A DNA stretch of 64,000 nucleotides from a virus, in the IMG/VR virus record IMGVR_UViG_3300027566_000006, positions 1 through 64,000 of that record, one strand, 5' to 3'. The notes beneath the pieces were generated by a model. That model ran no database searches, was not told the DNA's origin, and saw only the letters and a list, made by a program, of their open reading frames with translations. This document shows, piece after piece, positions 8,595 to 62,019 of this stretch. The translations under genes were made by a program, and so were the position numbers. How positions within the stretch are numbered: the first letter of the stretch is position 1; every line of letters starts with the position of its first letter.

Positions 8595-10331
8595 ATTAAA
8601 CTCCTTTCTCTAAATTTGATCCAATCAACTCTTTCATGCAAACCTATTCCCTGCATCAATCTTAGGTGGTTTTGATAAGTCACCATAAACAATATCGTCC
8701 TTTATTGTCTCTCTACAATTACCGCATATATGAACATCATTCCCACTTTCTATTTCTTCAAGTACACTTAGTCTTGAATTCATACTTTCGCACCATTGGC
8801 ATTTTAATTTCTTTGGTATACATTCTCTTATACAACCAGTTCTTTCCCTACAACTTCTATTATCAAATGCTGTCATAGGAGATGGAGTACAACCTGGAAC
8901 TACCAATGATCCTTTAGATTTATATTGCATATTTACTCCTTTCATTATCGAACAGTTCTTCTATTCTGACTTTACAAACCTCATCCACTTAATACTATCT
9001 TTATGATAATATTCGGATACTCCATCGTTCTCAATGTAATAACCTATTAAATTACATACCTCATCCATCACTGGTTCGATAAAATCAACTAATGTCCCTT
9101 CATGTTCAAAATCAAAACAAATTAATATATTCTCGTAGTTCATTTCATCAAACATTTCTTTAATTTTCATATTTACTCCTTTCTTTAACTCTGAACCTAT
9201 CCAACATTTCCTAATAATTTTTAATCATTTAAATGTAATTCTGCTTCATATTTTGTCACATAAAGTTTCTCCGCAAAAAGATAACGTGGATTATTCAAAT
9301 TATAACTTTCAGAATTTTTACTTATAAAAATTTCCTTTACTAAACCCCTATGTACTTTCTTTATCTCTTTATTTGGCAACCTGCTATTACAACAGGAACA
9401 AATCTCACCATATTCTGTTTCTTCCTCTATAAACCACGCAGTATCTCCAATATTAAATTTTGTTTTGTATCCTTCATTCATTATTATTTAATCCTCCCAT
9501 TCATCATCTTCATCATATTCATCTTTATATATTTCCTGTTTACTCAATTCAATCAACTGATCTAACAACAATCGTGTCAATCTCTTGTTAAAAATGTATT
9601 CATTGTATGCTCCACAACCATAATCAACATGTAATTGAAAACGATTTCCCTGTGATTGTTTTACCTTCTCAATAATATTAAACAGTCCACTACCCTTTAA
9701 ATCCGAGAACCAAACCCCTCTACCATACTGACCAGCAATAATAGAATATGTATAGAGTTTCTTAACTCCTCCGTCATGGATATCTTGACCATGTACGCTA
9801 ACTCTACCAAACCAATAATTAATAAACCGTTCCTTAAAGTTATTAAAGATGTATTGGATAACTTCTACTCTATCTTTCCAACTGGCTTTTAGAAATGCTT
9901 TGATTACTTTAAATACCATATTATCTCCTTTCATATTTATATTATTATTTTAATACCATACGGAATAAATTGCAACCATTATTTATTAATTAACTGCATA
10001 ATTGCTTTATATGTATTAGATCCATTAGTAGTGCTATCAACACTAAACGCTCCGTATTTCTTTTGATTATATCCGCTTTTCATTTCTTTAATTAACTCTT
10101 TAAAATTACCCATTCCATAAAACAGCAAATAAAATGGAAACAAAATAGTTGCTAATATTTTAGTTGGTAGATTTATAAACTTATGAATTAATATTTCATT
10201 TCCATTATAATAATACTCATATTTATCACACCATCTCATCTGCCTATATTTAAATAATTTATTATGTTGTTTCTTAGTTAATTTGAATTGTTTATATCCT
10301 TTGTCTAAGGGGTTGGTGTAAATGTAATTAC

Positions 10332-13637: not shown

Positions 13638-14492
13638 TCACGAAATATTATGTTCTTCTATGTATTTATTTAGTTCCTGCTTTGTTGCTCCAGTTACCAA
13701 TATCTCAAGAAAATTTCTTTTATCATCTATAGACCATAATTCATGTTGTAAATAATAAGTGCCATCTTCTCTATAAACCCTACTTCTTTTAAATCTATAA
13801 GGAGGTTTTTCTTTTATATAATTTTTATACCCTTCTGTAGTCCACCATATAATTTTATCATATCTTTCTTTGGTGAAATTATCTATATACTTTGCTTCTA
13901 ATAATTCATCTAATGTCATTTCATGTTTAACACTATTACAATTCTTACAAGCAGGAACACAATTTCGTAAATCTAAATAACCATCATTATCTACATGCTC
14001 TTTATGAAATTGCTCATGATTTTCTTGATAATTATCTTCATAAGTCCTCCCACAATAAGCGCATTTCCATTCAAACACTTCACAGCAAGATATCCATTCA
14101 GCACTATTAATATCATGTCTTTTATGTCTTTTAGTTTTAGCGTATCCATTCATTTTGTCTTTATTATTTTTTCTATATAATTTACGATTTTCCTTTTGTT
14201 GAATTTGATTTCTTTTCATTGCCGCTTTACCTTTAGGATTTCTAATATATTTTCTTACATTTTCTATAAACCCATCCCAATGATTATTAATATAATTCAA
14301 TGATCTTTTACTTGTACACTTTTTGCATTCTGTTTGAAAACCTTTTTCTGGTTTACTTTTATTTTTCATGTAAAAATATTCTACGGTTTCAGGAAACCAT
14401 TCTTGACACATTGTACATCTACGTTCTTTTATTTCATTAACTTCTCTAATATTTTTAAAAAATTTAGGATTTGTTTTTGTATATTTACCCAA
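13638..14492 (-). CDS. HNH endonuclease
   Basis: CAYCG...HKEHVD...NCVPACKNCNSVK plus N-terminal zinc ribbon; same family as 10332..11099. Confidence 0.85.
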   Translation of the reverse strand: MGKYTKTNPKFFKNIREVNEIKERRCTMCQEWFPETVEYFYMKNKSKPEKGFQTECKKCTSKRSLNYINNHWDGFIENVRKYIRNPKGKAAMKRNQIQQKENRKLYRKNNKDKMNGYAKTKRHKRHDINSAEWISCCEVFEWKCAYCGRTYEDNYQENHEQFHKEHVDNDGYLDLRNCVPACKNCNSVKHEMTLDELLEAKYIDNFTKERYDKIIWWTTEGYKNYIKEKPPYRFKRSRVYREDGTYYLQHELWSIDDKRNFLEILVTGATKQELNKYIEEHNIS

Positions 14493-15507
14493 TATTTATT
14501 TTTCCTTTCTGTTATTATTGATTCAAATAAAGAATTCATTAAAATGCAGTTCTTAAAAAAGTAATAAGTATTTTATTGCCATCTCTGGTTGCCGAATAAA
14601 TTTTATTACCATCATCATTACAAGATTCATCTGTAGTTTGATACCATAATATTTCTTCAACAACCTTTTCTGTAACTATACCCTTATGGAATCTAGTTTT
14701 AAATTCTTCACCTATAATTAATTCTAAATTTTCTCTCGTAATATCGACAAACTCTAAAATTGTAGCAGTAGTATCATTAAGTTTTGACCATAAAGATTCT
14801 TTTATCTGTTTCATATAATTCATCTCCTTATAATTTAATAGAACATAACTTTTATCTTAACTTAAACTTTCATACTCTTCTTCGGTAATTTCATAACACT
14901 CACAATTCATCTTTTGGAGCCATTCTACAAACAGATCGTTATCACTACACATTATCTTACCAACATACACACCGTTCTTAAATGCTTTCCCGAATCTAAA
15001 ATTTAATTCCATTATAATTCCTCCTCAATTTTATTAAAATATCCTTATTAATATAATACCACTATATTTATATTTGTCAATTATTTATTTTATGCTTTTA
15101 ATTAATTCCTAACTAACAAAAATTCCTTTACCCTCGCTCTTACCCCTTCCCTTTATACCATTGATTAAGTGCTTCTAAACATTCATCAAAAGATTCATAC
15201 TCTAAACCTTGCTCTAACGAATTATAATATATACGTTTATCACAATTATCCCCAGTACATTTGTGTAAACCACACCGTTTAATAAAACAACAAATAACCC
15301 AGTGGTACTTACCATTTGGGTTATAATAAATCGAAGTCAATATCCCTGTTTTTCGGTTCTTGTGTTGCCAAGTTTTGTAAACTTTTCTTTTTTTAATTTC
15401 TTTAAATTTCACATTAATCATTCCCCATCATTTTAATATGTATTATGGGTTTTTGAATGACTTAGTATGTGAAATTTTAACTATAAATATGAATTATGAA
15501 TAATGAT

Positions 15508-15931: not shown

Positions 15932-16321
15932 TTACTGCCATTTGTTAGTTGTATATTTTTGCCCTATATCCTTTTGATTAAATACTAATAATCCTTTACC
16001 TTCCGTAGAAAAAACAAGTGAGTTTTTATCTAACCATCCATTATATTCTTCAACCTTACATAAATTCCATTGATTAGGATGATTGCATATACTCACTAGA
16101 TTTTCAATTCCTTTTTCAATTCCTGTTAAAAGCCTATAGTAAGTTTTCTCAAACAGTAATTTATTTAATACTTCAAAGCTTTCTTCTTTAATTAATTCGT
16201 CTAACAATTTTATTTGAGAATTAAGATAAGAAATATCTTTGAAATTATATCCCTTATCTATTAATCCATTCTTCATAAAATTTAATACTTTATATTTCAT
16301 CCACATTGTTTTTAAAATCAT
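15932..16321 (-). CDS. Hypothetical protein coupled to the repressor gene
   Basis: ATGA overlap with the 16318..17280 stop. Confidence 0.6.
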   Translation of the reverse strand: MILKTMWMKYKVLNFMKNGLIDKGYNFKDISYLNSQIKLLDELIKEESFEVLNKLLFEKTYYRLLTGIEKGIENLVSICNHPNQWNLCKVEEYNGWLDKNSLVFSTEGKGLLVFNQKDIGQKYTTNKWQ

Positions 16322-17280
16322 TTAAGCAACAACTCCTCGTATTGCACAAATTTTTCTTTTAGTTTAAAAGGATAACCATAATCAAATCTATCACAAATAT
16401 CAATATAATCATCTTTTGTGACTTCGCCTTTTTCTCTATATATATCCATAGCCATTTGAATCATTCCTGATTCATAAACTGTTGTTGCTGTAAGATATGG
16501 ATTATCAACCCATTTCTTAATCCTCGTCATACGAGAATTAAATAAAGCTGAATGAAATTTTTCAAATTTGTTTTTACCAGGAATTCTAAAAATAAGATTT
16601 TCAAAACGATTAATTTTACTTTTTCTAGGATCAGCTATTCTAGGATTATTAGTTATCTCTCCGTTATTCTCAACGTAGATTTCTTGCTCAAAGGTATCCT
16701 TAATTAATCCTACAGTTGAAGTTTCAACTTTTATAGTCCTTATATCATCATTGTTATTTTTCCTTAGTTTAATTATATTATTGTCAAAGTCAACATCATC
16801 TATAGAAAGGTTAATAATTTCTTCTAATGTTTCATCTCCGACTGTTCTGCCTCTAACCCCTAAGAAAAGCAATTCTAAAAGCAACTGGTCTTGTTCATTA
16901 TATAAGAGTTTTTGGTAATCTTTCAATTTCTCTTTAGATATAAACTTATTTAATAAAGCTTGCTTGCTAACATGCTTTTTAATATCAATAAACCTTGCTC
17001 TATTCTCTTTGTGCAAAACCAAATTCTTGTTTATGCAAAAATCAATATAAGTTACTAAAATAGATTTATTTTTGTCTCCACTACTTTTTGAAGTATTCCC
17101 AAATTTAGAGAATAACTCGTCTAATTCAGAAATCGTTAAGTTATAAACTGGTTTATTAACCAATTGTTCATACTCATCTATTGTACGCAGAATAAAAGAA
17201 TCTGATTCAGCAGTAGCCGTAGGTTTACTGCTCAAATATTCTTGCTTGATTTCATTGTCTACTTCATAAACCATATCCAT
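16318..17280 (-). CDS. YopR/MrpR-like repressor with a catalytically degenerate tyrosine-recombinase fold
   Basis: 320 aa; box I-like LELLFLGVRG..EEIINLSIDDVDF but no HxxR or LGH..Y; directly follows a DGQHR gene, as yopR follows yopQ in SPbeta. Confidence 0.7.
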   Translation of the reverse strand: MDMVYEVDNEIKQEYLSSKPTATAESDSFILRTIDEYEQLVNKPVYNLTISELDELFSKFGNTSKSSGDKNKSILVTYIDFCINKNLVLHKENRARFIDIKKHVSKQALLNKFISKEKLKDYQKLLYNEQDQLLLELLFLGVRGRTVGDETLEEIINLSIDDVDFDNNIIKLRKNNNDDIRTIKVETSTVGLIKDTFEQEIYVENNGEITNNPRIADPRKSKINRFENLIFRIPGKNKFEKFHSALFNSRMTRIKKWVDNPYLTATTVYESGMIQMAMDIYREKGEVTKDDYIDICDRFDYGYPFKLKEKFVQYEELLLK

Positions 17281-20291: not shown

Positions 20292-21152
20292 CTACAAGGC
20301 GCACACATAACTATTTGTGCTTTCATATTCATAAACTACATTTTCAATATTTCTATTATATTTTTTACAATAGTTAGCCAATCTACCAACTATATTATCT
20401 GATATACTACTTAATCCTCTTGACTTCTTTGTTTGGGGATGACTATTCAATACTTTAATTTGCTCTATCAATTCAAATGCAATATCATCATTAAATAAAC
20501 AGTCAATCAAACCTAATTGCTTCTCGATTGCCGTATTCACTTCAAATATTTTTTCTTCTGACAAGTCTAAAACCTTAATTGGCACTCTATTATAAAACAA
20601 TCTTCTTTTAGTCACTGTTCTTATTTGTTCGAGACAAATAATGCTATCTTGGCGCATACCTTCATTTGTTGTTATTTTTACATGCGTAGGCATTGGTCTT
20701 TTTTGTTTTGTAGTTAAAGGGGCTATGGTTAACATACTACTATTTTCATTGCCCTTATTATTTGAAATAATAAGGCAAGGTCTAATACCCTCTTGTTCAG
20801 AATCTAAGTTATTGAAACCAAGATCAATATAATAAATACTTCCTCTACTGGGATAATAATTTGCCCAACTTTTATCTTCATTAGGATCACACTTTGAATA
20901 ACCACAAATTTGACATAAATGTAAGTATGTAACTCTCCCCTGACTTGCTCTTTCTATAACTCTTAAGACTTCCCTTTCGGGTAACACAGAGATTTTCTTG
21001 TCTAGTATGTTATTGATGTAATTTGCATCCACCATACGGCAATCCTGAGCAAACATTTTTACTGACCTGTGACCTTTTGCAAAGTTTACCATTATTGCTA
21101 ATTCTTCCTTAATTGCTTCTAGGGATTTTTTATCCACCTTTTCAGTTGCCAT
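20292..21152 (-). CDS. mazF: PemK/MazF-family endoribonuclease with N-terminal XRE-like HTH and C-terminal extension
   Basis: RGSIYYIDL..SEQEGIRPCLIISN..TIAPLTT..PTHV..DSIICLEQIRTV matches MazF; the first ~95 aa look like an XRE HTH. Confidence 0.85.
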   Translation of the reverse strand: MATEKVDKKSLEAIKEELAIMVNFAKGHRSVKMFAQDCRMVDANYINNILDKKISVLPEREVLRVIERASQGRVTYLHLCQICGYSKCDPNEDKSWANYYPSRGSIYYIDLGFNNLDSEQEGIRPCLIISNNKGNENSSMLTIAPLTTKQKRPMPTHVKITTNEGMRQDSIICLEQIRTVTKRRLFYNRVPIKVLDLSEEKIFEVNTAIEKQLGLIDCLFNDDIAFELIEQIKVLNSHPQTKKSRGLSSISDNIVGRLANYCKKYNRNIENVVYEYESTNSYVCAL

Positions 21153-32670: not shown

Positions 32671-34302
32671 CTATGCTAACATTAGCAATTTACTTGTCTC
32701 AACTATATAATCCTGAGTATTATTCATGACATTTTTGTAAGATACTTCACCTTCAAACTCCCTGACCACACGTTGCTCTTCTTCATCCATCTCATTATAG
32801 GTTTTCTTACCATAACTAGGAGGTAAGGCATTTCGATTCTGACTAGCAAAAATGTTGAATCTGTGAACCAACTCAGGATATTTCCATTCTAAATGGCATG
32901 TGCCTTTCTTGTAGAATGTACAATAGAAGTATGTCAATTCTATCTTTTTACTATCACTATATTGTTCTGCAAAGTTTAAAGCAGTTTTCATATCAATTTC
33001 ATTAATATCCATACTAGTACCTGTTGATAGATAATTAAATACTTTCTCAATATCCGATAATTTATTAACTACCCCATAATCTGTTGGTCTAAATCTATCA
33101 CTACTCCATTCATTAAAACCATTAAGTCTTATAATAACTTTTTTAGGATTTATTTTCCAACACTTGTTCGTGTACCAACCACTATAGTAATGAATATTGC
33201 TCCCGAATTCTGGGTTCCAAGAACTTTGCACACTAAACTCATCAAAAAGTTTCAGTATTGTATCCTGTACCCCTTGCAACATTTCTTTACTCAATTCAAT
33301 TCTAATAGTATAAATATTAAAAAGCGAAAAATCATAGTCCCTAAGTTCTTTTATTTTATCCATGTATTTTTGTCTAAGGTTAGAAGTAAACAATCCTATA
33401 AATTCTTTATTGGTGAATAACGCTTTCCAGTATTTTGTGCGTACCTGTTTAATATAAGAATTTTTTAAACTACAATTACCATCATCATCTTTATAATGTA
33501 AGGATAATTCCAATATAGGACTTTTACTATAATCATCCTTATCAAAGGTACTGATCATTAAAGGTTGTAATGCTTCATATTCGGCAATTAATTTTAATCC
33601 TGTTTGTACTTCAAAATTATACTGTTCTACAATTCCTTTTATGTAATCAGCATTAACCATTTGATTAGTATATTTATTTTGTGATTCATTGTTGACTCTA
33701 TATTGTTCTTGCCTTTTTAAATCATCGAGTATAATGCTATCATCAGTTAATTTGGGTATTACCAATGAGATTAAGGCCACCTCAACGCTTGTGGTGCGCT
33801 CTGCATCATAAAAAGCATCCTGTATATATTCAATCTCTGCATTATATTTTTCTAACTTCTGCGCTAATTCCTTTCTTATATTGCTATATGGATTACGCAA
33901 GGTTTCAGCATTCAGTAATGATACAATTTGGCCACCGTTCTGCTGCATCTCAATAGCCTTAATTAAAAATTTATCCCCTATACTAAAAGGTGGATTCATA
34001 ATTATAGCATCGTATGATTTATATGAATTAAAAGTTAAATAATCGTCTGCTACTACTCTATAACCTTTGCCCGATAAGATAAGTCTAAGATTATCATCAA
34101 TCTCAATTGTGTCAATGTCCCATTTAATTTCTTTATTATAATAATTATTACGAGAATATTTAAACTTGTCCGTTATTGCTTTTATTAAATCACCTTTGCC
34201 TCCTGCTGGCTCTAATACGCTTGAGACAGTACGGAAGTCAATTTTAGACAACATCTTATTTATTAAATGGGATGGTGTTGGATAAAAATCATCATTAAAC
34301 AT
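32671..34302 (-). CDS. Amino (N6-adenine-type) DNA methyltransferase, DUF4942-like
   Basis: DFYPTP, VLEPAGGKG and IMNPPF motifs; C-terminal FYKKGTCHL. Confidence 0.8.
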   Translation of the reverse strand: MFNDDFYPTPSHLINKMLSKIDFRTVSSVLEPAGGKGDLIKAITDKFKYSRNNYYNKEIKWDIDTIEIDDNLRLILSGKGYRVVADDYLTFNSYKSYDAIIMNPPFSIGDKFLIKAIEMQQNGGQIVSLLNAETLRNPYSNIRKELAQKLEKYNAEIEYIQDAFYDAERTTSVEVALISLVIPKLTDDSIILDDLKRQEQYRVNNESQNKYTNQMVNADYIKGIVEQYNFEVQTGLKLIAEYEALQPLMISTFDKDDYSKSPILELSLHYKDDDGNCSLKNSYIKQVRTKYWKALFTNKEFIGLFTSNLRQKYMDKIKELRDYDFSLFNIYTIRIELSKEMLQGVQDTILKLFDEFSVQSSWNPEFGSNIHYYSGWYTNKCWKINPKKVIIRLNGFNEWSSDRFRPTDYGVVNKLSDIEKVFNYLSTGTSMDINEIDMKTALNFAEQYSDSKKIELTYFYCTFYKKGTCHLEWKYPELVHRFNIFASQNRNALPPSYGKKTYNEMDEEEQRVVREFEGEVSYKNVMNNTQDYIVETSKLLMLA

Positions 34303-40046: not shown

Positions 40047-41970
40047 AAGTCTAATATATTCAATTTTATTTTAAACTTATATTACATTCTTGTTTATACT
40101 TGCCTTTTATCGTATTCTGCTTTAGTAATTTCTACATAAGTCATTAACTCATCTTTCTCTAAGGTAAATTCATCTAAACCTATTTCATTGACCATGATGA
40201 TTTTATTACCTTCTTCTTTGCCTCTATACACCCATCCGAATTCACATGAATCTTTGTTGATATCCATAAAATATTTATAAGGCATGATTCAACACTCCTT
40301 TTTATTTATTCTAAAGGCATATTATTAAAATGTCAACCATATTTATTTTTACCCTTTAATATCATATTTTTAACTTAGTTACATTCTTTACAAAAATAAC
40401 ATTCTTCGTTATCATGAATTTCAATAGTATAATCTTTATTTAAAATTAAATTATTTAAATCAATTTTTCTTCCACATTGGCTGCATTCAACATAAAAACT
40501 ATCTAACATTTTAAATCTCCTTCAATCTCCTTTATACTCTATTATACTATGTTTTTCCAAACTCAAAATCGTTACAAAATGCCTGATTTATTTTGTTATG
40601 CTTTTAGTAATTCAATAATATAGTCTACTGCTCCGCTAAAATCATCATATCTGAAATATTTAGAACTACTCCAAAATTTATCCGAATATTGAAAAGCACT
40701 TGATTCATGTTTCACACTACTATAAACAACAATTTCATCACTGTTTCTATTCTCACTAAAAGCAATTGTTTGAATTTTTGCTTCATCGTTATAATTGCAA
40801 ACTCTATACCCTTGCTCTCTGCAATTTTCAAACATTTCAAAACTGGACTTAATATTTTGTGTGCGGGTATCCTCCATTAGCATATTTTTAATCTTTTCAG
40901 CATATTCAATCTTTCCTAATTCTAACATTTCAAATCCCTTCCTTTCATCCTTATAAAATATTAGTTTTATCCAATGTCCATTAATTCTGCCGTAATATTT
41001 AATGTTTTTCCGTTTATATCATACTGTGTAAACACTGTCCCGCCATCTGCAACATATCCTAATTCGTCTTCTCCTCTTAGAATTATGTTTAGGAATGTGT
41101 TATCCTCAACACCTTTTAAAAACTCTTTCAGTTCTCCAACTGTTGTAATATTAACATTACATTCTTTGTATAATTCTTTCCGGTCTGCCTTTTTAGTTGT
41201 TTTTCTTTCCTCTTTAAATTCTTCTATTGAATATGGTAACATTTCAATACACTTCCTTTCAATTCGTTATAGAATCTGAATTTCAAACAAATATTTATTA
41301 TGCTGTCAATACTGGCATTTCTGTGATTTTAACTTTTAAGGTGTATTTATCAAAATCATGTGTCCCGCAAATTACTTTAAATAACTTTGTAGTTACCGTC
41401 ACATCCTCTGAATACTTAACTGTTTTTTCTTCTAAATATTTTACTTTTATTTCTTCTGCTTTTTTAGACCACTTGTTCATTAAAGTTTCTACAATGGCCT
41501 TTTTTAATTTTTGATTAGATGGAATTTTATTGTAGACTAAAATTGTTGAGTATTTAAATTCTAACTCCACATATTGAATGGTTCTACTCATTTTCTACCC
41601 TTCCTTTCTTGATAAAAAAGTTATTTGGTTTTGATGTATTAATTATACCATACTCACAACATGATATGCAAGCACATTCTTTATTTTATTCTTTTGTTTA
41701 CGCTACCCTCTTGAGGTAACTTTGTCTCGCTGTTATATGCCTATTCATTCTTGTTTTCTTTATCTCTAGAGCGTTTTTCATTGATAAGTAATTAACCATA
41801 AAGCAACTAAATACAATTAGTATCCATCCGGCTGCAAAGTATTTAATGACTAGGGAAGAGACTGTTATTATATCATTCATTGTTATACCTCCTTTAGTTT
41901 ATTTTTTATATTATAGTTATAAGGTTTTTGAATTAAGCAGAACCTTTTAAACTGCTGTTATTGTTTTAGT

Positions 41971-43539
41971 TTACATTGCCGAACTATTTATATTTAACCT
42001 GTTCATCTCTTTTAATATCCTTTTAAATGCTTCTTGATAATCTGTATCGCATGCTTTAGTACCCCATGCCATTTTACCAGTTATGTGATTCTTAATTATT
42101 GTTATTGCCTGTTCAAAGGTTTTATACTCGGCTGATTCTTTAATCATTGGGAATTTATAACCTTGTTGTAATACTTCTTTTAATGCCTTACCTGTTATAA
42201 TAGTTTCCCAATTTCCCATATTGATAAAACGCTGATCATCATCAAAATGCGGTCTGTTATAGAAGTTAGAGATAGTATATATTTTATTCTCAATTATATT
42301 ATGGTTTTCTATTGCTGTTACTTTACGGTTACATTTATAAATAATTGTCGGTTCTGTATCATTTCCAGTATATACTTCATCCTCCCAAAACAATTCTGAT
42401 CCTGTTAATAGTTCGGAGATTTTATGATATTTCTTGCTGTTATTATCCATTTTTAAGTAAGTTACTGTATATAGAGTATTTTCTTCAACATCTTCTGGAG
42501 TGATATTTTTAACTTCTGCCAACATACTGTTATTGTAATTTTCAAGTTCTTCTGCTTCTTTTCTTCTTCTCTGTTCTCCTTTTTTTATATTGCAGTTCTC
42601 ATCAAAGTATAATGTATTGCTGTCAAAACTATGGCAATTAAAGCTTAACGGTGTTATACCTTCTTTTGTTTCTCCTGCTGATACCCACCAACCTGAAGAA
42701 CTTTCGATTATTCTTTCTGCTAAATGTATTAAATCAAGTGATGAGCCTCTTCCATAATTACATGCTGCATCATAAGCATAATCATCTGAATAATACCCGT
42801 CTTTTACTCCTTTGAATATTTGACCTGATAAAATAGCTTTCCAAACATGAGCAATAGTCCATTTTTTTGGTGTTTTAATTGGTTTGATTTCAACGAATGG
42901 AGAAAAGGTATTAATTCCTTTTTGTGAACCTTTGTCTATCTCTAAAGTTTCAATATTCAATGAATCGGTTATTATTGCGTTATGAAATGCTTTTACGGTT
43001 TCAATTTCGCCGATGTTCCACAATTCTGTTAATACAGATTTATGGTCATCCCATACATTTTTACGGATTGAATAACGATTACATTCTTTACCAATTTTTA
43101 ATGCATTGGTAAGGTCGATTAATACTGCACTATCAGCATAAAAATGAATATATGCGTTAATATCTGCAAAGTAGCCGGAAACTCTGCTATTCAATTCTAT
43201 ATCGCTTGATTTAAAGATTTCTGTACTACCTACAGTATTGTAAGAGGGAAAATAAGATTGTTCTGGTTTGGTTGTTGTGGTCTGGTTGCTATTATCTGTT
43301 ATTACTAATTCTTGATCCTGGTTAATTTCTCCGCTTAATTCTTGAGCCAATTTTAAAGTTTTTTCTGATTGTTTGGCATACCACAATTCTTTTTTCCATG
43401 AGAATCTAAATCCTGCATCTTTTAGAATGTTTTTAATGGTGTTATTTGGTTTCTCATCTTTAGGCCAATATAATTCCACTCCGTTTAATTCCTCATTGAT
43501 TGCCATTTTAATACTGTTATTGTCTGACATTGCCAACAC
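41971..43539 (-). CDS. Large early protein with an N-terminal domain typical of phage/plasmid polyvalent proteins
   Basis: NEELNGVELY..KP..LKDAGFRFS..K.LWYAK; remainder unknown. Confidence 0.5.
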   Translation of the reverse strand: MLAMSDNNSIKMAINEELNGVELYWPKDEKPNNTIKNILKDAGFRFSWKKELWYAKQSEKTLKLAQELSGEINQDQELVITDNSNQTTTTKPEQSYFPSYNTVGSTEIFKSSDIELNSRVSGYFADINAYIHFYADSAVLIDLTNALKIGKECNRYSIRKNVWDDHKSVLTELWNIGEIETVKAFHNAIITDSLNIETLEIDKGSQKGINTFSPFVEIKPIKTPKKWTIAHVWKAILSGQIFKGVKDGYYSDDYAYDAACNYGRGSSLDLIHLAERIIESSSGWWVSAGETKEGITPLSFNCHSFDSNTLYFDENCNIKKGEQRRRKEAEELENYNNSMLAEVKNITPEDVEENTLYTVTYLKMDNNSKKYHKISELLTGSELFWEDEVYTGNDTEPTIIYKCNRKVTAIENHNIIENKIYTISNFYNRPHFDDDQRFINMGNWETIITGKALKEVLQQGYKFPMIKESAEYKTFEQAITIIKNHITGKMAWGTKACDTDYQEAFKRILKEMNRLNINSSAM

Positions 43540-44053
43540 TCCTTTTATTTTTATTAATTAAACTCTTATTTTGGGATACTACTTAGAGCATCCCAACTAT
43601 AAGAATTCACTTAATTATTTTCGTAAAATTCTATAGTCTCAGCTATTGCAACTTGATACTCTTCAATGCTGTTATACTGATTTACCGTTATATCACCTTC
43701 GCAGTATGTGTATATATTATATGCGTTGTTATCGGCTAATACTGCTCTATATCCGTCAACAAAGAGACAACTGGTGTTATAATGTTTATTTACTATGGAT
43801 TGGAATGTGTAACAATCTCCGCATATATGGCCTCCATAATATAGAATAGAATTATCTTCTTTAATTCTGGAATGTAAGCATATATCAATTATTTTATTAC
43901 CTGTTAAGGGATAGTCTGGAATGATTTCATATTTATTAAAATTGATTCCCTTATAGTTATTATCACTTAGAATAGTTTGAAATTGTTCTGCTGTTACCTT
44001 AATTATATTTTCCATTTTATAACACTCCTTTTTTCTTTAAACTTTATATTATA

Positions 44054-44082
44054 ATTATAATGGTTTAGTTTCATGTTGTCAA
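44054..44082 (-). promoter_or_regulatory. Consensus sigmaA promoter
   Basis: TTGACA-17-TATAAT; shares TTGACAACATGAAA with the promoter at 45465-45494. Confidence 0.8.
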
Positions 44083-47000
44083 CATTATTTTCTTAGCCTG
44101 TAGGCTCAAGATTATATTTTTCACACCATGAGCAAAATACATCAATATTAGCTTTTACTCCTTGCTGCTGTCTTACTGCTTGATATTGGTTATAATCTGC
44201 GTACCAACATCCTGCTACCTTATAAGCCTTTACCCCGTTAATGTGTCTTGTTTTCTTTTCCATTATTTCCAACTCCTTTTTTGTTTTTTATTTTTATTTA
44301 AGCTTAACACTTACAGAGGTTAACACTGGCTGTTATTATATTTTGTTTGTGTTATGTGTTAACCTTTAAAATGTTAATTCGTTATTTGGTTACATACCAT
44401 GCCACAAATTTATTTTCTGTTCCATCTTGACTACTCCAAGGCGTATAATGTGCCTTATGATTTTTTCTAATATAGGTATTTAGATTTTCATTATTGCAAA
44501 ATATTTTTGCTTGTTCTTCAGTATCAAAAAACTTAAATGTTGACTTATATCTGATGCTCATAATATAAACATACTCCTTTTTATTTTTTGTTCTGTACTA
44601 ATTTGTTTTAATGGCAGGAATATTATATAAAACAATTTTCCCACTATCATTATATATATTATTGCAAACGCTCATTTTAAAATATTTTTTACCTTTTTTG
44701 ATTCCTTCTATTACAAAGGATAATCCTTTTTCCTCCGCTTCTTTTAGTTCTAATTCCTCGAAAGATGTATTGTTGCTCCATCCATCTTTTATGAATTTAT
44801 TTGTTATTTGTTCCACTGTTTTAAACATTATTGTTATACCTCCTTCCATTTTTTCACTTTGAATCAAATTTGCTATTGGTTTTGTTATTTGCATATTTCG
44901 CATATGCAATGTTGTGATCCACCTGTAAATATTCCTTTGTATACATCTGATTCAAGAATAAGACTCTTATAATTTCTTCTTGAATCTCCTGTATACATTA
45001 CTTTAATTATGCCAGAAACATAATTCCGTAAAGTATACCCAGTAGCAAGGATTTTATTATCATCCATGCATCTAATTTGATATTTAAAGAAGTTTACCTT
45101 CTCACATACCAAATTTTGATTACCTAAGTATTTTTCGAGTTCTCCTGCTTTTAAAGTTTTCATTCCTATCCACTCCATTCTGTTATTATTTTTATTTCCT
45201 TTTAATACCCTCAATTATGCCCAAATTGGGCATACTGGAAGGTACTGCTGTTATACTAAATAAATTTTAATTCCTAAATATATTTGTGAATCAATTCTAA
45301 TTTTCTCAATTTCCCGTTCCTTGTATTCTTTTGGTATTTTGTGCCGTAAAATGTAATTGCAGACCATCAACATGCAATTCTATATTTTCTTTACCATCAA
45401 GAGTTTTTAATAAGTCATCAAATTTCATTCTGCTCCACTCCTTTTTTAATTCTGTTATTACCTAATTCTAACAGATTTACTTTCATGTTGTCAATAGTAT
45501 TTTATGCTTACAATTATATCTTTATTCTGTTATTTAGTGATAAAATCAATCTTTCATCACAAGTATAGTTTAACTGCTGTTATACCGCTTGAGGGTAAAG
45601 TTTGCAGTATTCATCAAACAATTTCTCTGTTTCCCTTTTTGCATCTTTTAGCAGTTTAAACCTTCCAATAATATCTTGAGATTCTTTTTCCGTATTTTCT
45701 ACTATGCCATAATAAAAAGGTCTTTTGATTGAATCGTGACTGTATTCTTTTTCCATTTCTTGATATACAACTACTCTAATGGTTTCTAATGTATTGCAGG
45801 GATCACGGGCTTCAAAAGTATAACGGGGAGAATCGTCTAACCAGTCATAACCTTTTGTCCATTTTTTAGTCATATGATTTTCACTCCTTAATTATTTTAT
45901 TAATCTGGTTATTGCTGATATGCACAAATAACCTTGTCACCTAAATCAATGGCAAATCCTTTTTTACTCGGTAAAGGTTTGATCATATCAATAAATTTAG
46001 ACTTTGTGTTATACTCAATTCCTGCTGCATCGATAAAATTATCATTGAAATAATCCCAGGTTTTATAATTCTTATTGATAGTCTGCTCTAAGTAACATAC
46101 TAGAGCTTTGTTGGCTGGTAAAGTGTATAGCGCATGGTCTGTTATAGTTCCCTGCTCGTCAATAGACTTGATAATTGATTTTTGGTTGTTCATTATGTTT
46201 CCTTCTTTCTTAATAATTATTTTTAGTTTGTTATACTGCGTATGAATATCTTCTACCTTCTTCATCTATTAGATAAATATATTTGACTGAAGTTATTTTG
46301 TATTCTGCTCCTTTTGTTTTATGCCATTCAAATGTTCGGTCAACATGAATTATATATTCATTGTTATAAATTAGCATGTATTCAAATGTATCATACTCAG
46401 TTTTTTCTATTTCTAATAATTTCTCAAGGTCTTTTATTTTGATTTTTCCTTTTATTGATTCGGGCATAGATTTTTTATTGATATACATTATGTTTTTACC
46501 TCCTTCCCTTATTACTATTCTGTTATTATTAATTCCTCTATAGAATATTAAAATCTGTTATATCTTATTTATAGTTTGATTTTAACACTCTAACAAAAAT
46601 TAATTGCTTGCTGTTATTGTGCGCTTGATCCGCTAACATGAGCATAATTAGTTAAAAACCATTCTGTATATTTTTCAGCTTTAAACCATTTCGCTAGTTT
46701 ATAATAACTTAATTCTCCTATTCCTGGTATTGGTTGCGGTTTTATTAATGCTTTTTTAGGTATCCAGCAAGTATATTTTGATAATTCCATGCTTTTAGAT
46801 TCCATGTTATAACCTTGTAATTGTATAGCCTTATCTGTTATTGCCGTTATACGTCCATGAAACATTCTACTAAATATTGCCGTCTCTGCTATTGCTCCAC
46901 CTAAAGAAATGCTGATTTCTTGATATTCTCTAAAATCCATTATTGTTATTCCTCCTCTATAAATTCAACTATGTGCAAACCTTTATTCCAATTGTATTTA

Positions 47001-48212
47001 CATATTTGACCACTAAAAATGTTATTGTCTGCATCAAGAAATAAGGTAATGTTATTAACATCTTTTTTCATTCCTTCCCGATATGGTTTGATATATGTTC
47101 TACAGATTAAGTGGGGAATGGTTCCTGCTACATTGTATAGGTCTGCAAACTGTCCACCTGGAGTAAATACGCTAGTTCTGATTTCTTCAATATTTACCAT
47201 ATTTATCCTCCTTTATATTTTTGTTTTACTACTAATAAGCCTTGACAAGTGGTGCTAATTGTTATTTGTTATTAGTACCACTTAATAAGAATTATTGTTA
47301 TTGATTTTTAGATGATATCCGACTGATATAGTTTTGAAAATCCAGTATTGATATTTTAGTCATTGGCTGAGATGATATTTTATTTTTAGCTTTATATACC
47401 TTTAAATTTGTTTCTCTGGTGTCAAACTTGTATTCGCCTATATGATACATTCCCCACCTATCAATGGTAGCTCCTGCTTGCTCTAGGATGGTATTAAGAT
47501 CATTAATATGTTTTAACCTTTGGATTTTTGTCAATGTTATCGACTCCCTTTATTTATTTTATGCCTCATTATATCATACTGGTAATATGATTGTAAAGAG
47601 TGGATATTTATTTTTATTAAATGATATACTGCTCGTGATAGGATAAGTCTGTTATATCATTTCTATTTTAATATCATTATGTTTTTCTTTATCTTTCATT
47701 ACATCAACTATAAAGTGCATATTTGGAGTAATAGTTTCATATTTTGTAGCATCTTCTATGTCGTCTACCATTTTGGGGAACACTTCTCGAACAATAAATT
47801 TTAAGTATTGATTTTCACATTTAATCACATACATATAATAACCTCCTTTTCACTTGATTCCAAACGGTTATTTTATGCTGAGTGCTAATTTATTTTTACA
47901 AATTTTAATATACTTGATTCAACCCAAGTTTTCAATTCTTTATCTGTTATAGTCTTTTCCCAAATAAAACTTTTAAAATCTGTACTATAACAATGTAATT
48001 GACAACGGCCTATGATCCATAGATTATCTTGTAATACTTCATATATTCCATTATAGCAATCAAATTGATTTTGAATAATTACATGATTTATTTTTATATT
48101 GTCTTTTTCAGTTACCAAAATATATTTTACATTATTTTTACCACAAAAGTCTGGTAGTATATCATTGTTATTGTTATTCATTTTTATTCCTCCAATTCAT
48201 TTTTTTAATCTG

Positions 48213-48557
48213 TTATAGATTTACCGCTATAGTTCCGCTTTTAATCCAGCAATCACAATTAGCAATGACTGTTATTATTGTTATGGTATTATTTGTAATA
48301 TTGCAAACTATCGAAAAATTGTTTGGTTTATCTTGTATAAAAATATCTCTGTTGCTACCAGCATAGGCTGTTATTGTTTTTTCTCCTAGACTGAGTATTG
48401 ATCCTGTTACTTGGTAAAGATCAATTTGTCGTTGCTGTAGTCTGAGTTCTGCATGGTTTGTTAAGCGGATAGAATAGGTATTATTATTAATAGTGAATGT
48501 ATTAATGGAAGTTCCCGCCTTTCTTTTGTGGTTGTGGTTGGTTGTGGTGTTATACAT
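48213..48557 (-). CDS. DUF4258-like (RelE/BrnT-fold) protein
   Basis: LTNHAELRLQQRQI N-terminal motif and terminal ITIITV strand. Confidence 0.45.
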   Translation of the reverse strand: MYNTTTNHNHKRKAGTSINTFTINNNTYSIRLTNHAELRLQQRQIDLYQVTGSILSLGEKTITAYAGSNRDIFIQDKPNNFSIVCNITNNTITIITVIANCDCWIKSGTIAVNL

Positions 48558-49656
48558 TTATTATACTCCTTTCTTTTGTTATTTGTAATTGTATTCGGTT
48601 TATAATCTTTGACAATGGGTATTATATTTATTTTGATTCTATAATACCTATTAATAAGGATTATATTGTGATAGTGTTATGCAGGTCTTACAATTAGTTC
48701 ATTATTCTTAATTTCTACTACTTGGAGCTTGCAAGTAGTGTTTTTTAATTTAAAGGTATCATTCACTTTATAATCCTTTTTAACCTTGCCTATTAGATTT
48801 AGACAACCGGGTGATCTAAAATATACTTTTTTCATTTTGTTGTGCTCCTTCCATTAGTCTGTTATATCATTCCAAGATATTCGCAGTATTCGCCACCATG
48901 ATTATTATATAGTTTAGTTTGTTTCATTAGTGTATAGTCTTCTAATATGCTACATTGTACTAATAGTGTTAATTCTTTTAATGTTGCGTGTACTTGTATT
49001 CTCTTTGTGGCCATTTTAGATTTTAGGTTTCTGGCTTGGTTTGTTATTGTCTTTTGGTCTTTTGTCATTTTGTTATTTCCTTCTTTCTTTTTATTATTGT
49101 TCTGTTATTGTGTTTTAAATATTCTCTATAGAGCTAATTTTATTTTATACTTCTAATTAGCTCTAACAAAATATTATTTGGTGTTATGCTGCCGTTATGG
49201 TTTGTTCTGTTATTGTTTGTTCAGCTAATTGAATTAATTCTTTTAGGCTAAATCTATTACTTTCTTTTAGTTCGGTTTCTTTGTGTTCTTTTGTTATGCT
49301 CCATATGTTGCCATCATTGTTCTTAGTGGCTGAATAGGTTTCCGTAAAATATTTACCAATTCCATTACAATACTTAAAATAATAAAACCTAGTGTATTGT
49401 TTTTCCGTTTCCGTCTCGTTTGTTAATTTGATTAATGAAGGGTATTCATGATCATGCGATGGATTATAGATATAATTTGCTAGATCAATTTTAAAATTAT
49501 TTGCGGTTTGGATTTGAGATAGTTTTTTAAGGTTTTCCTTTTTGAGATTTCTTGCCATTTTAATTCCTTCTTCCTTTTATTTGTTATTTTGTGTATCTGT
49601 TATATCCTCTATAAAGCATATACTTAACTGTTATAGGTATATGCTTTAACAAGATA

Positions 49657-50040
49657 TTAAGATATGAAATGTAATTCCCCATTAACTTCTAAACTTATTG
49701 CATCTTGATTAGCCATTGTTAGTAATTGTTCGCCTATTTCAATAGCTGACTCAATTGCAATTTCTAGGTTATTTGTGTAGCTGAATACTACGGTAATTTT
49801 TTCTTTTATCAATTCCCCTGATGCTGATTTCCAGTAACCTAGTGCGGATGTAGAAGTAGCTCCCCCATTAACCTGGGAGAACGTAGAAGCTGTTAAGTCA
49901 ACCATTTTATTAATTAGTTCCTGTGATAATTCAATATTGTTTTTGTCTTTTGTCGGAACGTATAAAGAGATTTTATGGGATAATTTGAATAGGTTTTTCA
50001 AGGTTTTTTTGTTTTCCATTAGTGTTATTCCTTCTTTCAT
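49657..50040 (-). CDS. DUF3574/PII-like small protein
   Basis: GGATS..ALGYW...KE...QDAI pattern. Confidence 0.4.
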   Translation of the reverse strand: MKEGITLMENKKTLKNLFKLSHKISLYVPTKDKNNIELSQELINKMVDLTASTFSQVNGGATSTSALGYWKSASGELIKEKITVVFSYTNNLEIAIESAIEIGEQLLTMANQDAISLEVNGELHFIS

Positions 50041-50609
50041 TTTTTGTTATTTTAGCATCAAATCTCGGTTTTATACTGAGTGATATTAATTATTCTTCGT
50101 TTATTACTACTCGTTCTATTATATTACTAATTACATTTTGCAATCCAAAAAGTTCTTTTAATGTTAGGGTTCCTTCCTCTTCAACTAATTTTTCTAATAT
50201 GCTTTGATTTCTTAATATTTCGCTAGCTCTTTCTAGTGTTATATGTTGTTTATTTGCCATTTTGATATCTCCTTTCATTTTATTTTAGACTTCTAAAAAC
50301 CTTCAAGCAAGATAATGTTTGTTGGTTGTTATCTTGATTCAAGATTCTCTATTCTCGGTTACTGCACTCTGTTCATATCTTTCAATTTATCTCTACTATA
50401 CTTGTGCCGGGTCAATGCCTCCAGCTATACGGCTTAGTAGGTTAGAGTGCTATATTAGTATTTATATCCTCCACGATTCAATAAATACTTTTTGTATTAG
50501 AGCTTGCATGAGGTAAAGGTAACTCGAATCTGAATCGGCTGGCCTTTAGGTCTAAGCGGTCTAGGCTGTCGGCCTGTTGTTCGTGTGTCTGTATCTCTTA
50601 TCTGAATTC

Positions 50610-50638
50610 AGTATATCAGGTTGGGAATATGAAGTCAA
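50610..50638 (-). promoter_or_regulatory. sigmaA-type promoter at the head of the early region
   Basis: TTGACT-17-TATACT with an AT-rich UP element. Confidence 0.7.
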
Positions 50639-50891
50639 TAGTTTTTTTGAATATTTTTATATTTTTATTTTGATGATTGATTGAGAATAGGTTGGTATTA
50701 GATTGATAATATAATGGTGGTTGCAGCATGATTTGATTGTATAGGTGGTTATATGGCTCAAGGTTGGACGGTAGTATGTTTTATGATGTTTTGTATTCAG
50801 TTGGTTGGTTTATGGTGGTTGTTGGGGAGTATGAGAGGAGGTAATTTAATAGAAGATAAAAAATTGAACATTTACACGGTATAATAAGAGA

Positions 50892-50962
50892 ATTAAAAAA
50901 GTTGTCCGTCAAAACCTATATAGAAATAAATCTATTATATAGTATTCGACAGACAACTTTTA
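50892..50962 (-). terminator. Terminator downstream of ORF 50979..52016
   Basis: AAAAGTTGTC...GACAACTTTT stem with U-tract. Confidence 0.6.
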
Positions 50963-50978
50963 TTTTATATTCATAATA

Positions 50979-54875: not shown

Positions 54876-54904
54876 ATTATATTACTATTATAATACAATG
54901 TCAA
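54876..54904 (-). promoter_or_regulatory. Consensus sigmaA promoter
   Basis: TTGACA-17-TATAAT. Confidence 0.75.
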
Positions 54905-55622: not shown

Positions 55623-56543
55623 ATGACCCAATCAGTAGCTATAGATAACGGATTTCATACAACAAAAATTTACCAACAATCCCCTATCCCTAAATCTTAT
55701 TCTTTTCGCTCTAAATTTCAATCTACCACCTCCCCACTCACTTATCCTAATACTCATTCAATCACTTATAAAAATAATAATTATCTTATAGGAGATCATG
55801 CAGAAGAGATTGATATTAATCTGAATAAAAATAATTCTCTTTTACACTATCTCACAACTCTCACTGGCTTAGGTTTATTATCATCCACACTAACACAACA
55901 CATACAATATAATCTTGTTGCAAATATCCCTATTAATCTTTATAACCAATCTAACAAGGAAGCATTTGAAAATTATCTACGTTCCACTACTCCTATCACT
56001 TATTCATTAAATAATAAACCCATATCCATCTCAATCCCAAATGTAGTGGTATTTCCTCAAGCACTATCGTGTATTTATGTCAACCACATTAAATCAAACC
56101 TTATAGGTATTCTTGATTGTGGAGGAATCACGATCCAAGGGTGTATATGTGAAAACAAAAATCTTATCCATTCAACCGTGTTCACTGAAAATCAAGGAAT
56201 ATTAATTTTATTAAATAAAATAAAGAAAGCACTCAATGCTCAATACAACATCAATATCAATGATTATGAACTAGAATCAATCCTCAAAAATGGTTTATTA
56301 CAAGATAAAGAAAAATCTCTACAAATAATATCCTCTATATGCACTTCTCATATTGAACAAATAATTAAAATAATGAAGTTATCAGGCTGGAATCTTGAAA
56401 ACACTGAAATCCTTTGTGTAGGAGGTGGTTCTTTATTATTAGAGCAATATCTATTAAAATTATTACCTAAATACCGTATATCCAATAATCCAGCTATGGA
56501 TAATGTTCTTGGTTTGTGGGAGGTAGCTAAGAATGTATTCTAA
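55623..56543 (+). CDS. parM: ParM/StbA-family actin-like partition ATPase
   Basis: AIDNGFHTTK, VFPQ, ILDCGGIT and VGGGS actin-fold motifs. Confidence 0.85.
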   Translation: MTQSVAIDNGFHTTKIYQQSPIPKSYSFRSKFQSTTSPLTYPNTHSITYKNNNYLIGDHAEEIDINLNKNNSLLHYLTTLTGLGLLSSTLTQHIQYNLVANIPINLYNQSNKEAFENYLRSTTPITYSLNNKPISISIPNVVVFPQALSCIYVNHIKSNLIGILDCGGITIQGCICENKNLIHSTVFTENQGILILLNKIKKALNAQYNININDYELESILKNGLLQDKEKSLQIISSICTSHIEQIIKIMKLSGWNLENTEILCVGGGSLLLEQYLLKLLPKYRISNNPAMDNVLGLWEVAKNVF

Positions 56544-61128: not shown

Positions 61129-62019
61129 ATGAATACAAATACTACTAATAATACTATTGAGGTCAACTTTTTACCCTTATACACCCAACATCTAACCACT
61201 AATGGTAAATCAACCAATACAATAAAATCCTATACTCATGATATTGAATTATTCTTTAATCACTTTAACCTATCCCCTAGTATTGTGCAAAGAGATCAAG
61301 TAATTCGTTATAAAGATTATCTTTTGAATACTAAAAATAATGATGCTAAAACGGTTAATCGGATTCTAAGTGCTATTAAGAGTTATAATGAGTTTTTGGT
61401 ATTGGATGGGTTGCAGGAGAATTTGGTTGTACTGTCTCAAGACTATAGAAAGGTTCAAAAATCATCTTCTTCTCCGGTTAAAGTATCAACACCTGAAGTA
61501 TTTAAATTTCTTAATAAACTTAAAGATAATGAACCGTATAGAAATTATGCAATAGCAGTAGTGCTTGCTAATACTGGTTTAAGGATATCTGAAATATTAA
61601 ATATTAAATTGAATAAACTAGTTACTTTAAAAGATGATGAATTAACTATCATAGGTAAAGGAAATAAGCAAAGACTTATTATAGTTAATCCTAAAGCAAT
61701 TGGAGTTATTAAGGAGTATATTGCTAATCATAGGAGCAAATCAAAATATGCTAGTGAATCAGAATATTTATTTGTTAGCAATAAAGGTGAAAAACTTAAT
61801 ACTTTTACAATACAAAGAATATTTAATAAATATAGCAATAAAATTACACCACACCAATTACGTCATCGTTATGCATCAGATATATTAGAAAATAAAATAT
61901 GGGATGTTCGACAATTGCAGGATCAGTTAGGCCACGCACAATTAAATACAGTTATGATATATACCCATACAAGTAAAGAAAAGATGAAAGAGAATTTGAG
62001 TGGATTTAGTATTGGGTAA
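61129..62019 (+). CDS. Intact XerC/D-type tyrosine recombinase
   Basis: TGLRISE, GKGNKQR, HQLRH and LGHA...IYTH catalytic set; promoter TTGACT-17-TATTAT at 61037-61065. Confidence 0.92.
   Translation: MNTNTTNNTIEVNFLPLYTQHLTTNGKSTNTIKSYTHDIELFFNHFNLSPSIVQRDQVIRYKDYLLNTKNNDAKTVNRILSAIKSYNEFLVLDGLQENLVVLSQDYRKVQKSSSSPVKVSTPEVFKFLNKLKDNEPYRNYAIAVVLANTGLRISEILNIKLNKLVTLKDDELTIIGKGNKQRLIIVNPKAIGVIKEYIANHRSKSKYASESEYLFVSNKGEKLNTFTIQRIFNKYSNKITPHQLRHRYASDILENKIWDVRQLQDQLGHAQLNTVMIYTHTSKEKMKENLSGFSIG

Follow-up and report, generated by a model that had tools for sequence, protein, structure and literature searches.

Why would a phage repeat one seven-letter word through a whole run of genes, always on the same strand? 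We interrogated this question in the IMG/VR record IMGVR_UViG_3300027566_000006, of which bases 1-64000 form the window analyzed here (64,000 nucleotides in all). In a 9.5-kb early block on the minus strand (40900..50450), which holds about 25 small early genes and one gene for a 522-aa protein, the heptamer ATAACAG occurs about once per 150-300 bases and in every case on the coding strand. Related phages, whose hosts belong to two bacterial classes, repeat the word in like manner, pointing to a selected control signal. The word is selected, orientation-specific, dependent on position, and conserved across host classes. In a literature search, we did not find ATAACAG in a phage context.

Density and polarity of the word

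A first-pass annotation of the window described a strand-polar signal imposed on the codons and stop codons of the early region, and this description holds. Our recount gives 39 exact copies of CTGTTAT (ATAACAG in the mRNA), all on the plus strand, with 31 between 41730 and 49634, eight elsewhere, and none on the other strand, in agreement with the earlier count. Dinucleotide shuffles yield 13.9 +/- 3.8 copies with both strands taken together (maximum 24). The core of the word, in the orientation of the minus-strand genes, is ATAACA; 63 copies lie within 41.7-49.7 kb, against 28 in the other 56 kb, and two reverse complements are found in the same interval. About 32 of the 63 are NTGTTAT variants with a base other than C in the first position, matching the roughly 30 further variants noted before. 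The region 41730-49634, to which the enrichment had been assigned, is indeed enriched, but the true block is slightly wider, with ATAACA about 15-fold enriched between 40.9 and 50.45 kb. The sense strand of this block contains 68 ATAACA, 38 TAACAG, and 31 ATAACAG, compared with 2, 1, and 0 on the opposite strand. In a local scan statistic over the whole 98-kb contig, ATAACA is the top hexamer (30.8 vs ~10-12 for background words). The flanks of the copies carry no information beyond (A)TAACAG, and their spacing is roughly exponential, with a median of 120-140 nt and no fixed distance. As annotated, the MrpR(YopR)-like and YopQ-like genes lack the exact word; neither has TAACAG, though each has one ATAACA. 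Outside the block, the inverted word is scarce (5 CTGTTA vs ~18 expected; 0 CTGTTAT vs ~6.6 expected), and this bias tracks gene direction in both arms of the genome.

Codon usage in the block is shifted toward C-ending codons and Thr, and the block sense strand is unusually G-poor and C/A-rich. We count 39 ATAACA within coding sequences, whereas synonymous resampling gives 12.1 +/- 3.4 with the codon usage found outside the block and 16.3 +/- 3.4 with that of the block itself, and codon-order shuffling gives 8.6 +/- 2.6. None of these codon-aware nulls reached 39, and the enrichment thus survives the objection from composition that the first-pass annotation had raised against itself. Over 12 loci, TAACAG is placed in two open frames (187 and 92 copies), in stop codons (21), and between genes (116). 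Since copies occupy both frames, stops, and intergenic sequence, and exceed every codon-aware null, the word is a signal of the nucleic acid and not of the protein.

Related phages and the methyltransferase gene

The anchor gene of the block encodes the 522-aa protein (41971..43539, minus strand) and carries 12 copies of [TG]AACAG. The N-terminal ~70 aa of the protein are common to LPD29-domain proteins of Bacillaceae prophages and phage SPR. A Foldseek search of the PDB with its structure model (pLDDT 85.5) returned nothing at E <= 0.001, the best rows being weak and sliding-clamp-like. The gene has 68 homologues. In metagenome loci with a 53-80% identical orthologue, TAACAG ranks first or close to first among over-represented hexamers, and reverse complements are almost lacking (52 copies vs 6 expected in locus L051; 37 within 5.4 kb in L050), and placement on the coding strand alone holds in the window and in every related locus. 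Orthologues of the 522-aa gene in TAACAG-rich relatives contain 6-14 copies, some at common sites and many at sites that differ between clades. This turnover of sites at a maintained count points to selection for density per transcript.

The neighborhood of the LPD29 gene is also marked by the word in prophages of Cytobacillus gottheilii, Sporosarcina globispora, Heyndrickxia camelliae, and Robertmurraya siralis. When 160 kb of the Cytobacillus and Sporosarcina prophages were scanned, a single 4-8-kb spot proved enriched. The Sporosarcina block is bracketed by a terminator (9832-9854) and a promoter (9920-9948) on one side and by a terminator (15308-15324) on the other, and only two copies occur in the 3 kb past the latter. 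Enrichment is absent from the B. subtilis phage SPR and the Fusobacterium phage phiFN37. ATAACA is not enriched within the 50 kb examined of Clostridium phage D-1873, nor in the distant LPD29 relatives found in viral contigs (L010-L044, 33-58% G+C). One distant LPD29-family locus, on the viral contig L041 (55% G+C), carries ACCTGAGCG about 20 times on one strand over 11 kb, compared with 1-4 reverse complements. We considered a GAACAG lineage variant (L063, L065, L066, L121) as a case of word co-evolution and do not rely on it, because most of its copies are in frame 0, where they encode Glu-Gln. We also scanned the collection for triple arrays of ATAACAG; because many of the 119 loci recovered were unrelated (contigs of giant viruses, or repeats inside one huge open reading frame as in L268), this set was not used for co-occurrence statistics.

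The gene for a Dam-like and DUF4942 methyltransferase serves as a natural experiment. It encodes the most conserved protein shared with the Bacillaceae prophages, being 54-60% identical between the window phage, these prophages, and SPR (SPR, 56%; phiFN37, 45%). In three of the four Bacillaceae prophages the gene adjoins the LPD29 gene inside the block, whereas in the window it is located 8 kb outside the block (32671..34302, minus strand). Its ATAACA counts are 10, 9, 9, and 5 in the four prophages, where the gene is in or beside the block, compared with 0 in the window, 1 in SPR, and 0 in phiFN37, indicating that the word follows position or transcription unit rather than the protein.

Several relatives show local arrangements of their own. 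Repeated regulatory cassettes precede successive small genes in L054 (1900-3140) and also in L058, L051, and L067. Each combines a strong terminator, a conserved stretch of ~60 nt, 2-4 ATAACAG frequently spaced by 19 nt, a sigma-A promoter of consensus sequence, and a ribosome-binding site, recalling the promoter-stem-loop cassettes of T4-type phages. The Heyndrickxia camelliae prophage has six TAACAG in tandem with a 37-39-nt period (L125:6763-6954), ~3 kb upstream of its LPD29 gene. The word-rich LPD29 and methyltransferase zones of the Robertmurraya prophage flank ~3 kb of small genes that are almost free of the word (L127:12750-15800); this gap may be a recent insertion or a separate transcription unit.

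How the word may be read

We examined where the copies sit relative to signals of translation and transcription. The ten stop-codon overlaps listed in the earlier annotation are all real, as is the EQTITEQTITAA tail that it reported, and TAA stops read TAAC in 14 of 22 cases in the block, compared with 6 of 112 elsewhere in the genome. In relatives such overlap is much less frequent than in the window, so it looks like a cheap site for a copy and not the function itself. Other copies are located between a Shine-Dalgarno sequence and the start codon. ATAACAG is slightly more unpaired than composition-matched words (0.646 vs 0.602, p = 0.003), and four intergenic hairpins on the minus strand are associated with it. 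The hairpin at 49585..49656 (z = -4.7) has a 12-13-bp stem with ATAACAG in the loop, followed by two more copies; that at 44300..44381 (z = -4.2) has a 10-bp stem with ATAACA and ATAACAG in the loop; that at 47225..47297 (z = -3.6) displays two ATAACA in its loop; and at 46520..46600 (z = -4.4) the interior ATAACAG is partly paired in the predicted fold, with another copy just 3'. Terminator loops of relatives contain copies as well.

The upstream edge of the block is marked by a sigma-A-type promoter (50610..50638, minus strand; TTGACT-17-TATACT with TG before the second hexamer), and the first sense ATAACA (TGTTAT at 50327 on the plus strand) lies ~280 nt downstream of it. A perfect consensus sigma-A promoter within the block (44054..44082, minus strand) stands upstream of the 134-aa and 522-aa genes. 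Another perfect consensus promoter (54876..54904, minus strand) serves the upstream operon of the 588-aa and 345-aa genes, which has the same orientation as the block yet is poor in the word. The edge promoter is contained in a gene-free stretch of 700 nt (50279..50978, minus strand) that runs, past the 345-aa gene, from a C/A-rich tract of ~350 nt almost without G, through the promoter, to a leader of ~330 nt richer in G+C. The C/A-rich tract resembles a rut site. The leader was considered as a known or conserved RNA and set aside, having no Rfam match and no counterpart in the fetched relatives. WalR/PhoP-type direct repeats (TGTWAH-N5-TGTWAH) were rejected too, since TGTTAT fits the half-site but copies show no peak at 11-bp spacing, as were promoter-linked transcription-factor sites, for which we saw a weak rise only, 40-100 bp upstream of -35 hexamers.

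We tentatively favor the reading that ATAACAG tags the first early transcription unit or units at the level of RNA or of transcription and is read by a factor that the phage supplies, although we would not call it probable. The word marks the LPD29/yonX-type block of accessory genes in a clade of SPbeta-like phages, a block that, by analogy with SPbeta, would adjoin pac. Reading would take place on the sense strand, either while the early mRNAs are being made or afterwards, with the word acting as a single-stranded RNA tag on each of their cistrons, and a trans-acting phage factor could thereby control the whole early class at once. Possible outputs are timed cleavage or decay, translational shut-off at the early-to-late switch, and the clearing of leaky transcripts in lysogens. 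Reading at the RNA level is favored by the strict use of the sense strand and by a block that matches a transcription unit, and also by the copies in hairpin and terminator loops, the placement between Shine-Dalgarno and start and at TAA stops, the slight unpairedness, and the G-poor, C/A-rich sense strand. As in a RegB-like tag, the word is found on early transcripts, on their sense strand, and often near translation signals. On balance we put it only a little short of even that the word belongs to a previously undescribed class-tagging system of large temperate Firmicute phages, in which a 7-nt word in every cistron of the first early (anti-defence) unit is served by a dedicated phage reader. 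Genes entering the block would gain the word and genes leaving it would lose it, making the word a position-defined address label conserved from Clostridia to Bacilli.

Several observations weigh against an RNA-level tag. No reader factor was identified. The densest arrays (2-4 copies in L054, L058, L051, and L067) fall between a strong intrinsic terminator and the promoter that comes next, and promoter spacers contain some copies as well; these post-terminator and spacer sites are transcribed by read-through only. The effect on accessibility is small (the 0.646 vs 0.602 above). The sense 7-mer is not clearly purged from late genes (3 vs ~5 expected; ATAACA, 17 vs 27-35), and outside the block the inverted word is more strongly depleted than the sense word. 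The window block has no recognizable terminator at its end. Finally, the direction of transcription is not separable from that of (bidirectional) replication in these data.

We compared the co-occurrence of candidate readers and the word over eight elements. A PIN-PhoH (PhoH2-like) nuclease-helicase is a weak candidate. The window phage carries its gene, as do the prophages of Cytobacillus, Sporosarcina, and Heyndrickxia, and SPR and phiFN37 lack it; the mycobacterial PhoH2 is a sequence-preferring RNase-helicase that favors 5'-AC[A/U][A/U][G/C] (PMC7390352). Against this pairing, D-1873 has PIN-PhoH without enrichment in the 50 kb examined, and the Robertmurraya prophage contig has the word but PIN-PhoH was not found in it. 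An HNH protein (13638-14492) is shared with two word-carrying prophages and missing from SPR, and was dropped, with three genomes involved and no further support. The MrpR-like repressor also appears a poor fit by analogy, as the published MrpR/SroF sites are 15-24-bp SPBRE boxes, not a 7-mer: the protein binds these operators at ~ten promoters, a monomer reading 24 bp (PMC10516654; 10.1101/2025.11.27.690993).

A polar signal in the DNA, the second proposal of the first-pass annotation, is an alternative that we retain as unlikely but not negligible. Here a helicase-nuclease or motor, other than the host's ordinary Chi-reading AddAB, would read one strand from the pac-proximal end, and the signal would stop end degradation or start the recombination that circularizes or replicates a headful-packaged genome. 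A word that is fully polar, dense, and confined to one block suits such a role, as do its scarcity in inverted orientation elsewhere and the occurrence of copies wherever the strand tolerates them, including promoter spacers and post-terminator sites that look untranscribed. In SPbeta, for which pac and the packaging direction are known, the genome-opening point falls in the yonR-yonP interval, which heads the early operon (10.1101/2021.11.22.469490), so the homologous block would by analogy be terminal. Chi clusters of phages LLS and MD8 offer a precedent (PMC12315714). On the other side, in none of four Bacillaceae host genomes is ATAACAG over-represented (444-543 copies forward and 442-552 reverse, vs 364-472 of a reversed control; the Clostridium host of the window phage is not among them). 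Its density is about ten times that of known Chi clusters, and phages of Clostridia and of several Bacillaceae genera use this one word, whereas Chi words differ between genera. In B. subtilis, Chi is AGCGG. A word that is neutral in host genomes and shared across two host classes disfavors the host-Chi form of the proposal. The weak polarity that remains beyond the block reverses at ~55 kb together with gene direction, which speaks against a reader travelling one way along the whole molecule. Stoperator-like roadblocks, at which a DNA-binding protein would block or slow RNA polymerase in an orientation-dependent manner and so silence the block in lysogens or late in infection, seem quite improbable. 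Their nearest analogue described so far is the stoperator of cluster A mycobacteriophages. The many asymmetric sites in a single orientation relative to transcription, and the copies in promoter spacers and in arrays upstream of promoters, are as this model predicts, but the family repressor MrpR/SroF binds its own operators instead, a 7-bp site occurs ~1000 times per host genome, two thirds of the copies are in coding sequence without fixed spacing, and no candidate binding protein is conserved.

That the word is a cleavage code for the phage's own HTH-MazF, silencing early lytic mRNAs, was one of two proposals in the first annotation, and we consider it very unlikely. The window does encode a 286-aa HTH-MazF (20292..21152, minus strand) with an intact PemK/MazF domain (Pfam PemK_toxin), and MazF enzymes read single-stranded words of 3-7 nt that often contain ACA. 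The protein, however, is not conserved among word-carrying phages, and is unlikely as the reader. The Robertmurraya prophage, whose MazF gene lies 21 kb downstream of the LPD29 gene, is the sole prophage with MazF at a syntenic place, whereas the Cytobacillus gottheilii and Sporosarcina globispora genomes have one MazF homologue each, megabases from the prophage, and their prophages have the densest blocks. The proposal was to fall if relatives without mazF kept the motif, and these two prophages keep dense TAACAG without a phage mazF. Moreover, the word of the Bacillota MazF (EndoA) is UACAUA, unlike ATAACAG (10.64898/2026.08.06.743204; PMC10769878), and the enrichment of host MazF sites on lytic transcripts, given as known in the annotation, did not turn up in the arbitrium/MazF papers that we searched. 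We observed separately that UACAUA does not occur on the block sense strand (0 vs 8.4, 6.4, and 3.9 expected under Markov orders 1-3, and ~10 expected from the rest of the arm). It is scarce (0-1 each) in the closest relatives (L045, L047, L068, L074, L083) and not depleted in the clade of 54% identity or in the Bacillaceae blocks. Its lack from the block sense strand suggests that early transcripts of the window lineage may be MazF-resistant. Even less credit goes to a cluster of target sites for the Dam-like/DUF4942 methyltransferase. Because a single strand of AACAG contains adenines, its methylation would mark that strand specifically, and the enzyme is the most conserved shared protein and, in three of the four Bacillaceae prophages, is encoded within the block beside the LPD29 gene, but SPR and phiFN37 have the enzyme without enrichment. 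Strongly disfavored, and to us hardly credible, is an unselected by-product of codon or dipeptide bias, cassette duplication, or foreign origin of the block. The shifted codon usage of the block and the repetition of some intergenic cassettes in relatives would fit it; against it stand the failure of all codon-aware nulls, copies in both frames, stops, and intergenic sequence, the same word in unrelated genes of phages from two host classes, and the turnover of sites with the count kept, orthologous genes gaining or losing the word by location.

The phage and its place among known systems

The record has 98,339 bases with ~28% G+C and is estimated to be 56% complete. Its source is a large SPbeta-like temperate Clostridium phage. 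We group it with SPbeta-like phages because it encodes an MrpR/YopR-like master repressor (16318..17280, minus strand); a DndB-like YopQ is also encoded in the window. Among named genomes the single close match is a Clostridium metagenome-assembled genome, and the sole phage-database relative of the 588-aa protein is in Clostridium phage D-1873. Genes run leftward from ~55 kb and rightward past it. Near the divergence of these two arms are an actin-like (ALP/ParM-type) partition protein (window 55623-56543) and a Xer-like tyrosine recombinase (window 61129-62019), which suggest a plasmid-like prophage, as in the converting phages of C. botulinum. The block itself includes a 114-aa DUF4258-domain protein (window 48213-48557). 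The right arm encodes a large terminase and a YonO-type single-chain RNA polymerase (Pfam RdRP) adjoining AP2-domain and PIN-PhoH proteins. The polymerase, AP2, and PIN-PhoH genes belong to a four-gene cluster beyond the window (contig 65703-71519; L149:1703-7519) that comprises AP2 (234 aa), RNA polymerase (911 aa), zinc-ribbon, and PIN-PhoH (409 aa; contig 70290-71519) genes. Counterparts of the AP2 protein with 41-46% identity occur in the prophages of Cytobacillus and Sporosarcina, and SPR yielded none; the phage RNA polymerase might use this protein as a specificity factor.

SPbeta-like phages are a main model of phage decision-making, through arbitrium, MrpR/SroF, MazF, and YonO, and a conserved, extremely dense word kept to one strand of the first early genes points to a level of control that current models lack. 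A word that tracks position and not gene identity gives a handle on a common regime for mosaic accessory and anti-defence genes. Cultured lysogens of the four Bacillaceae species named above carry the block, making these ideas testable at the bench.

Among known systems, words that orient DNA motors share the polarity of ATAACAG. KOPS and SRS words, which orient FtsK and SpoIIIE, are polar and avoided in inverted orientation, but they are distributed genome-wide with a skew that switches at dif. ATAACAG differs in being confined to one block, and we found no FtsK-family gene (no PF01580 match) in the 98-kb, 56%-complete contig. Stoperators of cluster A mycobacteriophages, the sites of the L5 gp71 repressor in work attributed to Brown et al. 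(1997), are reportedly likewise many, asymmetric, and in one orientation relative to transcription. They are 13-14 bp long, mostly intergenic, present at ~25-35 per genome in both arms, and bound by the immunity repressor. ATAACAG, in contrast, has 7 nt, is placed in coding sequence in two thirds of cases, and occupies one block, and the repressor of this phage family uses another site of 15-24 bp. The terminal Chi clusters of phages LLS, MD8, and P1 come close in form, each being a short over-represented word, nearly of one orientation, concentrated regionally, and cutting across codon usage (PMC12315714). In LLS, 20 of the 23 Chi sites point the same way, with clustering at one end; the corresponding count in MD8 is 32 vs 0 (PMC12315714). 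Chi, however, is a word that the host itself over-represents; ATAACAG shows no such excess in the four host genomes, is about tenfold denser, and is the same across host classes.

Two systems come from the same phage family. The SPBRE element read by MrpR (SroF) is also repeated at early promoters of SPbeta-like phages, among them that of yonX at the start of the homologous operon (PMC10516654), yet it consists of 15-24 bp at ~ten promoter sites, while ATAACAG is a dense 7-mer running through coding sequence. The Bacillota MazF (EndoA), tied to this family via the arbitrium lysis-lysogeny link in SPbeta and phi3T, is a sequence-specific single-strand RNase with an exact 6-nt word, but this word is different, and phages with ATAACAG need not encode MazF. 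The T4 endoribonuclease RegB targets GGAG in early mRNAs, often near ribosome-binding sites, and GGAG is the Shine-Dalgarno core too. ATAACAG has no such second role, and no RegB homologue is seen in this phage. By analogy with RegB and GGAG, however, a short word on early transcripts would let one phage nuclease inactivate the whole early class.

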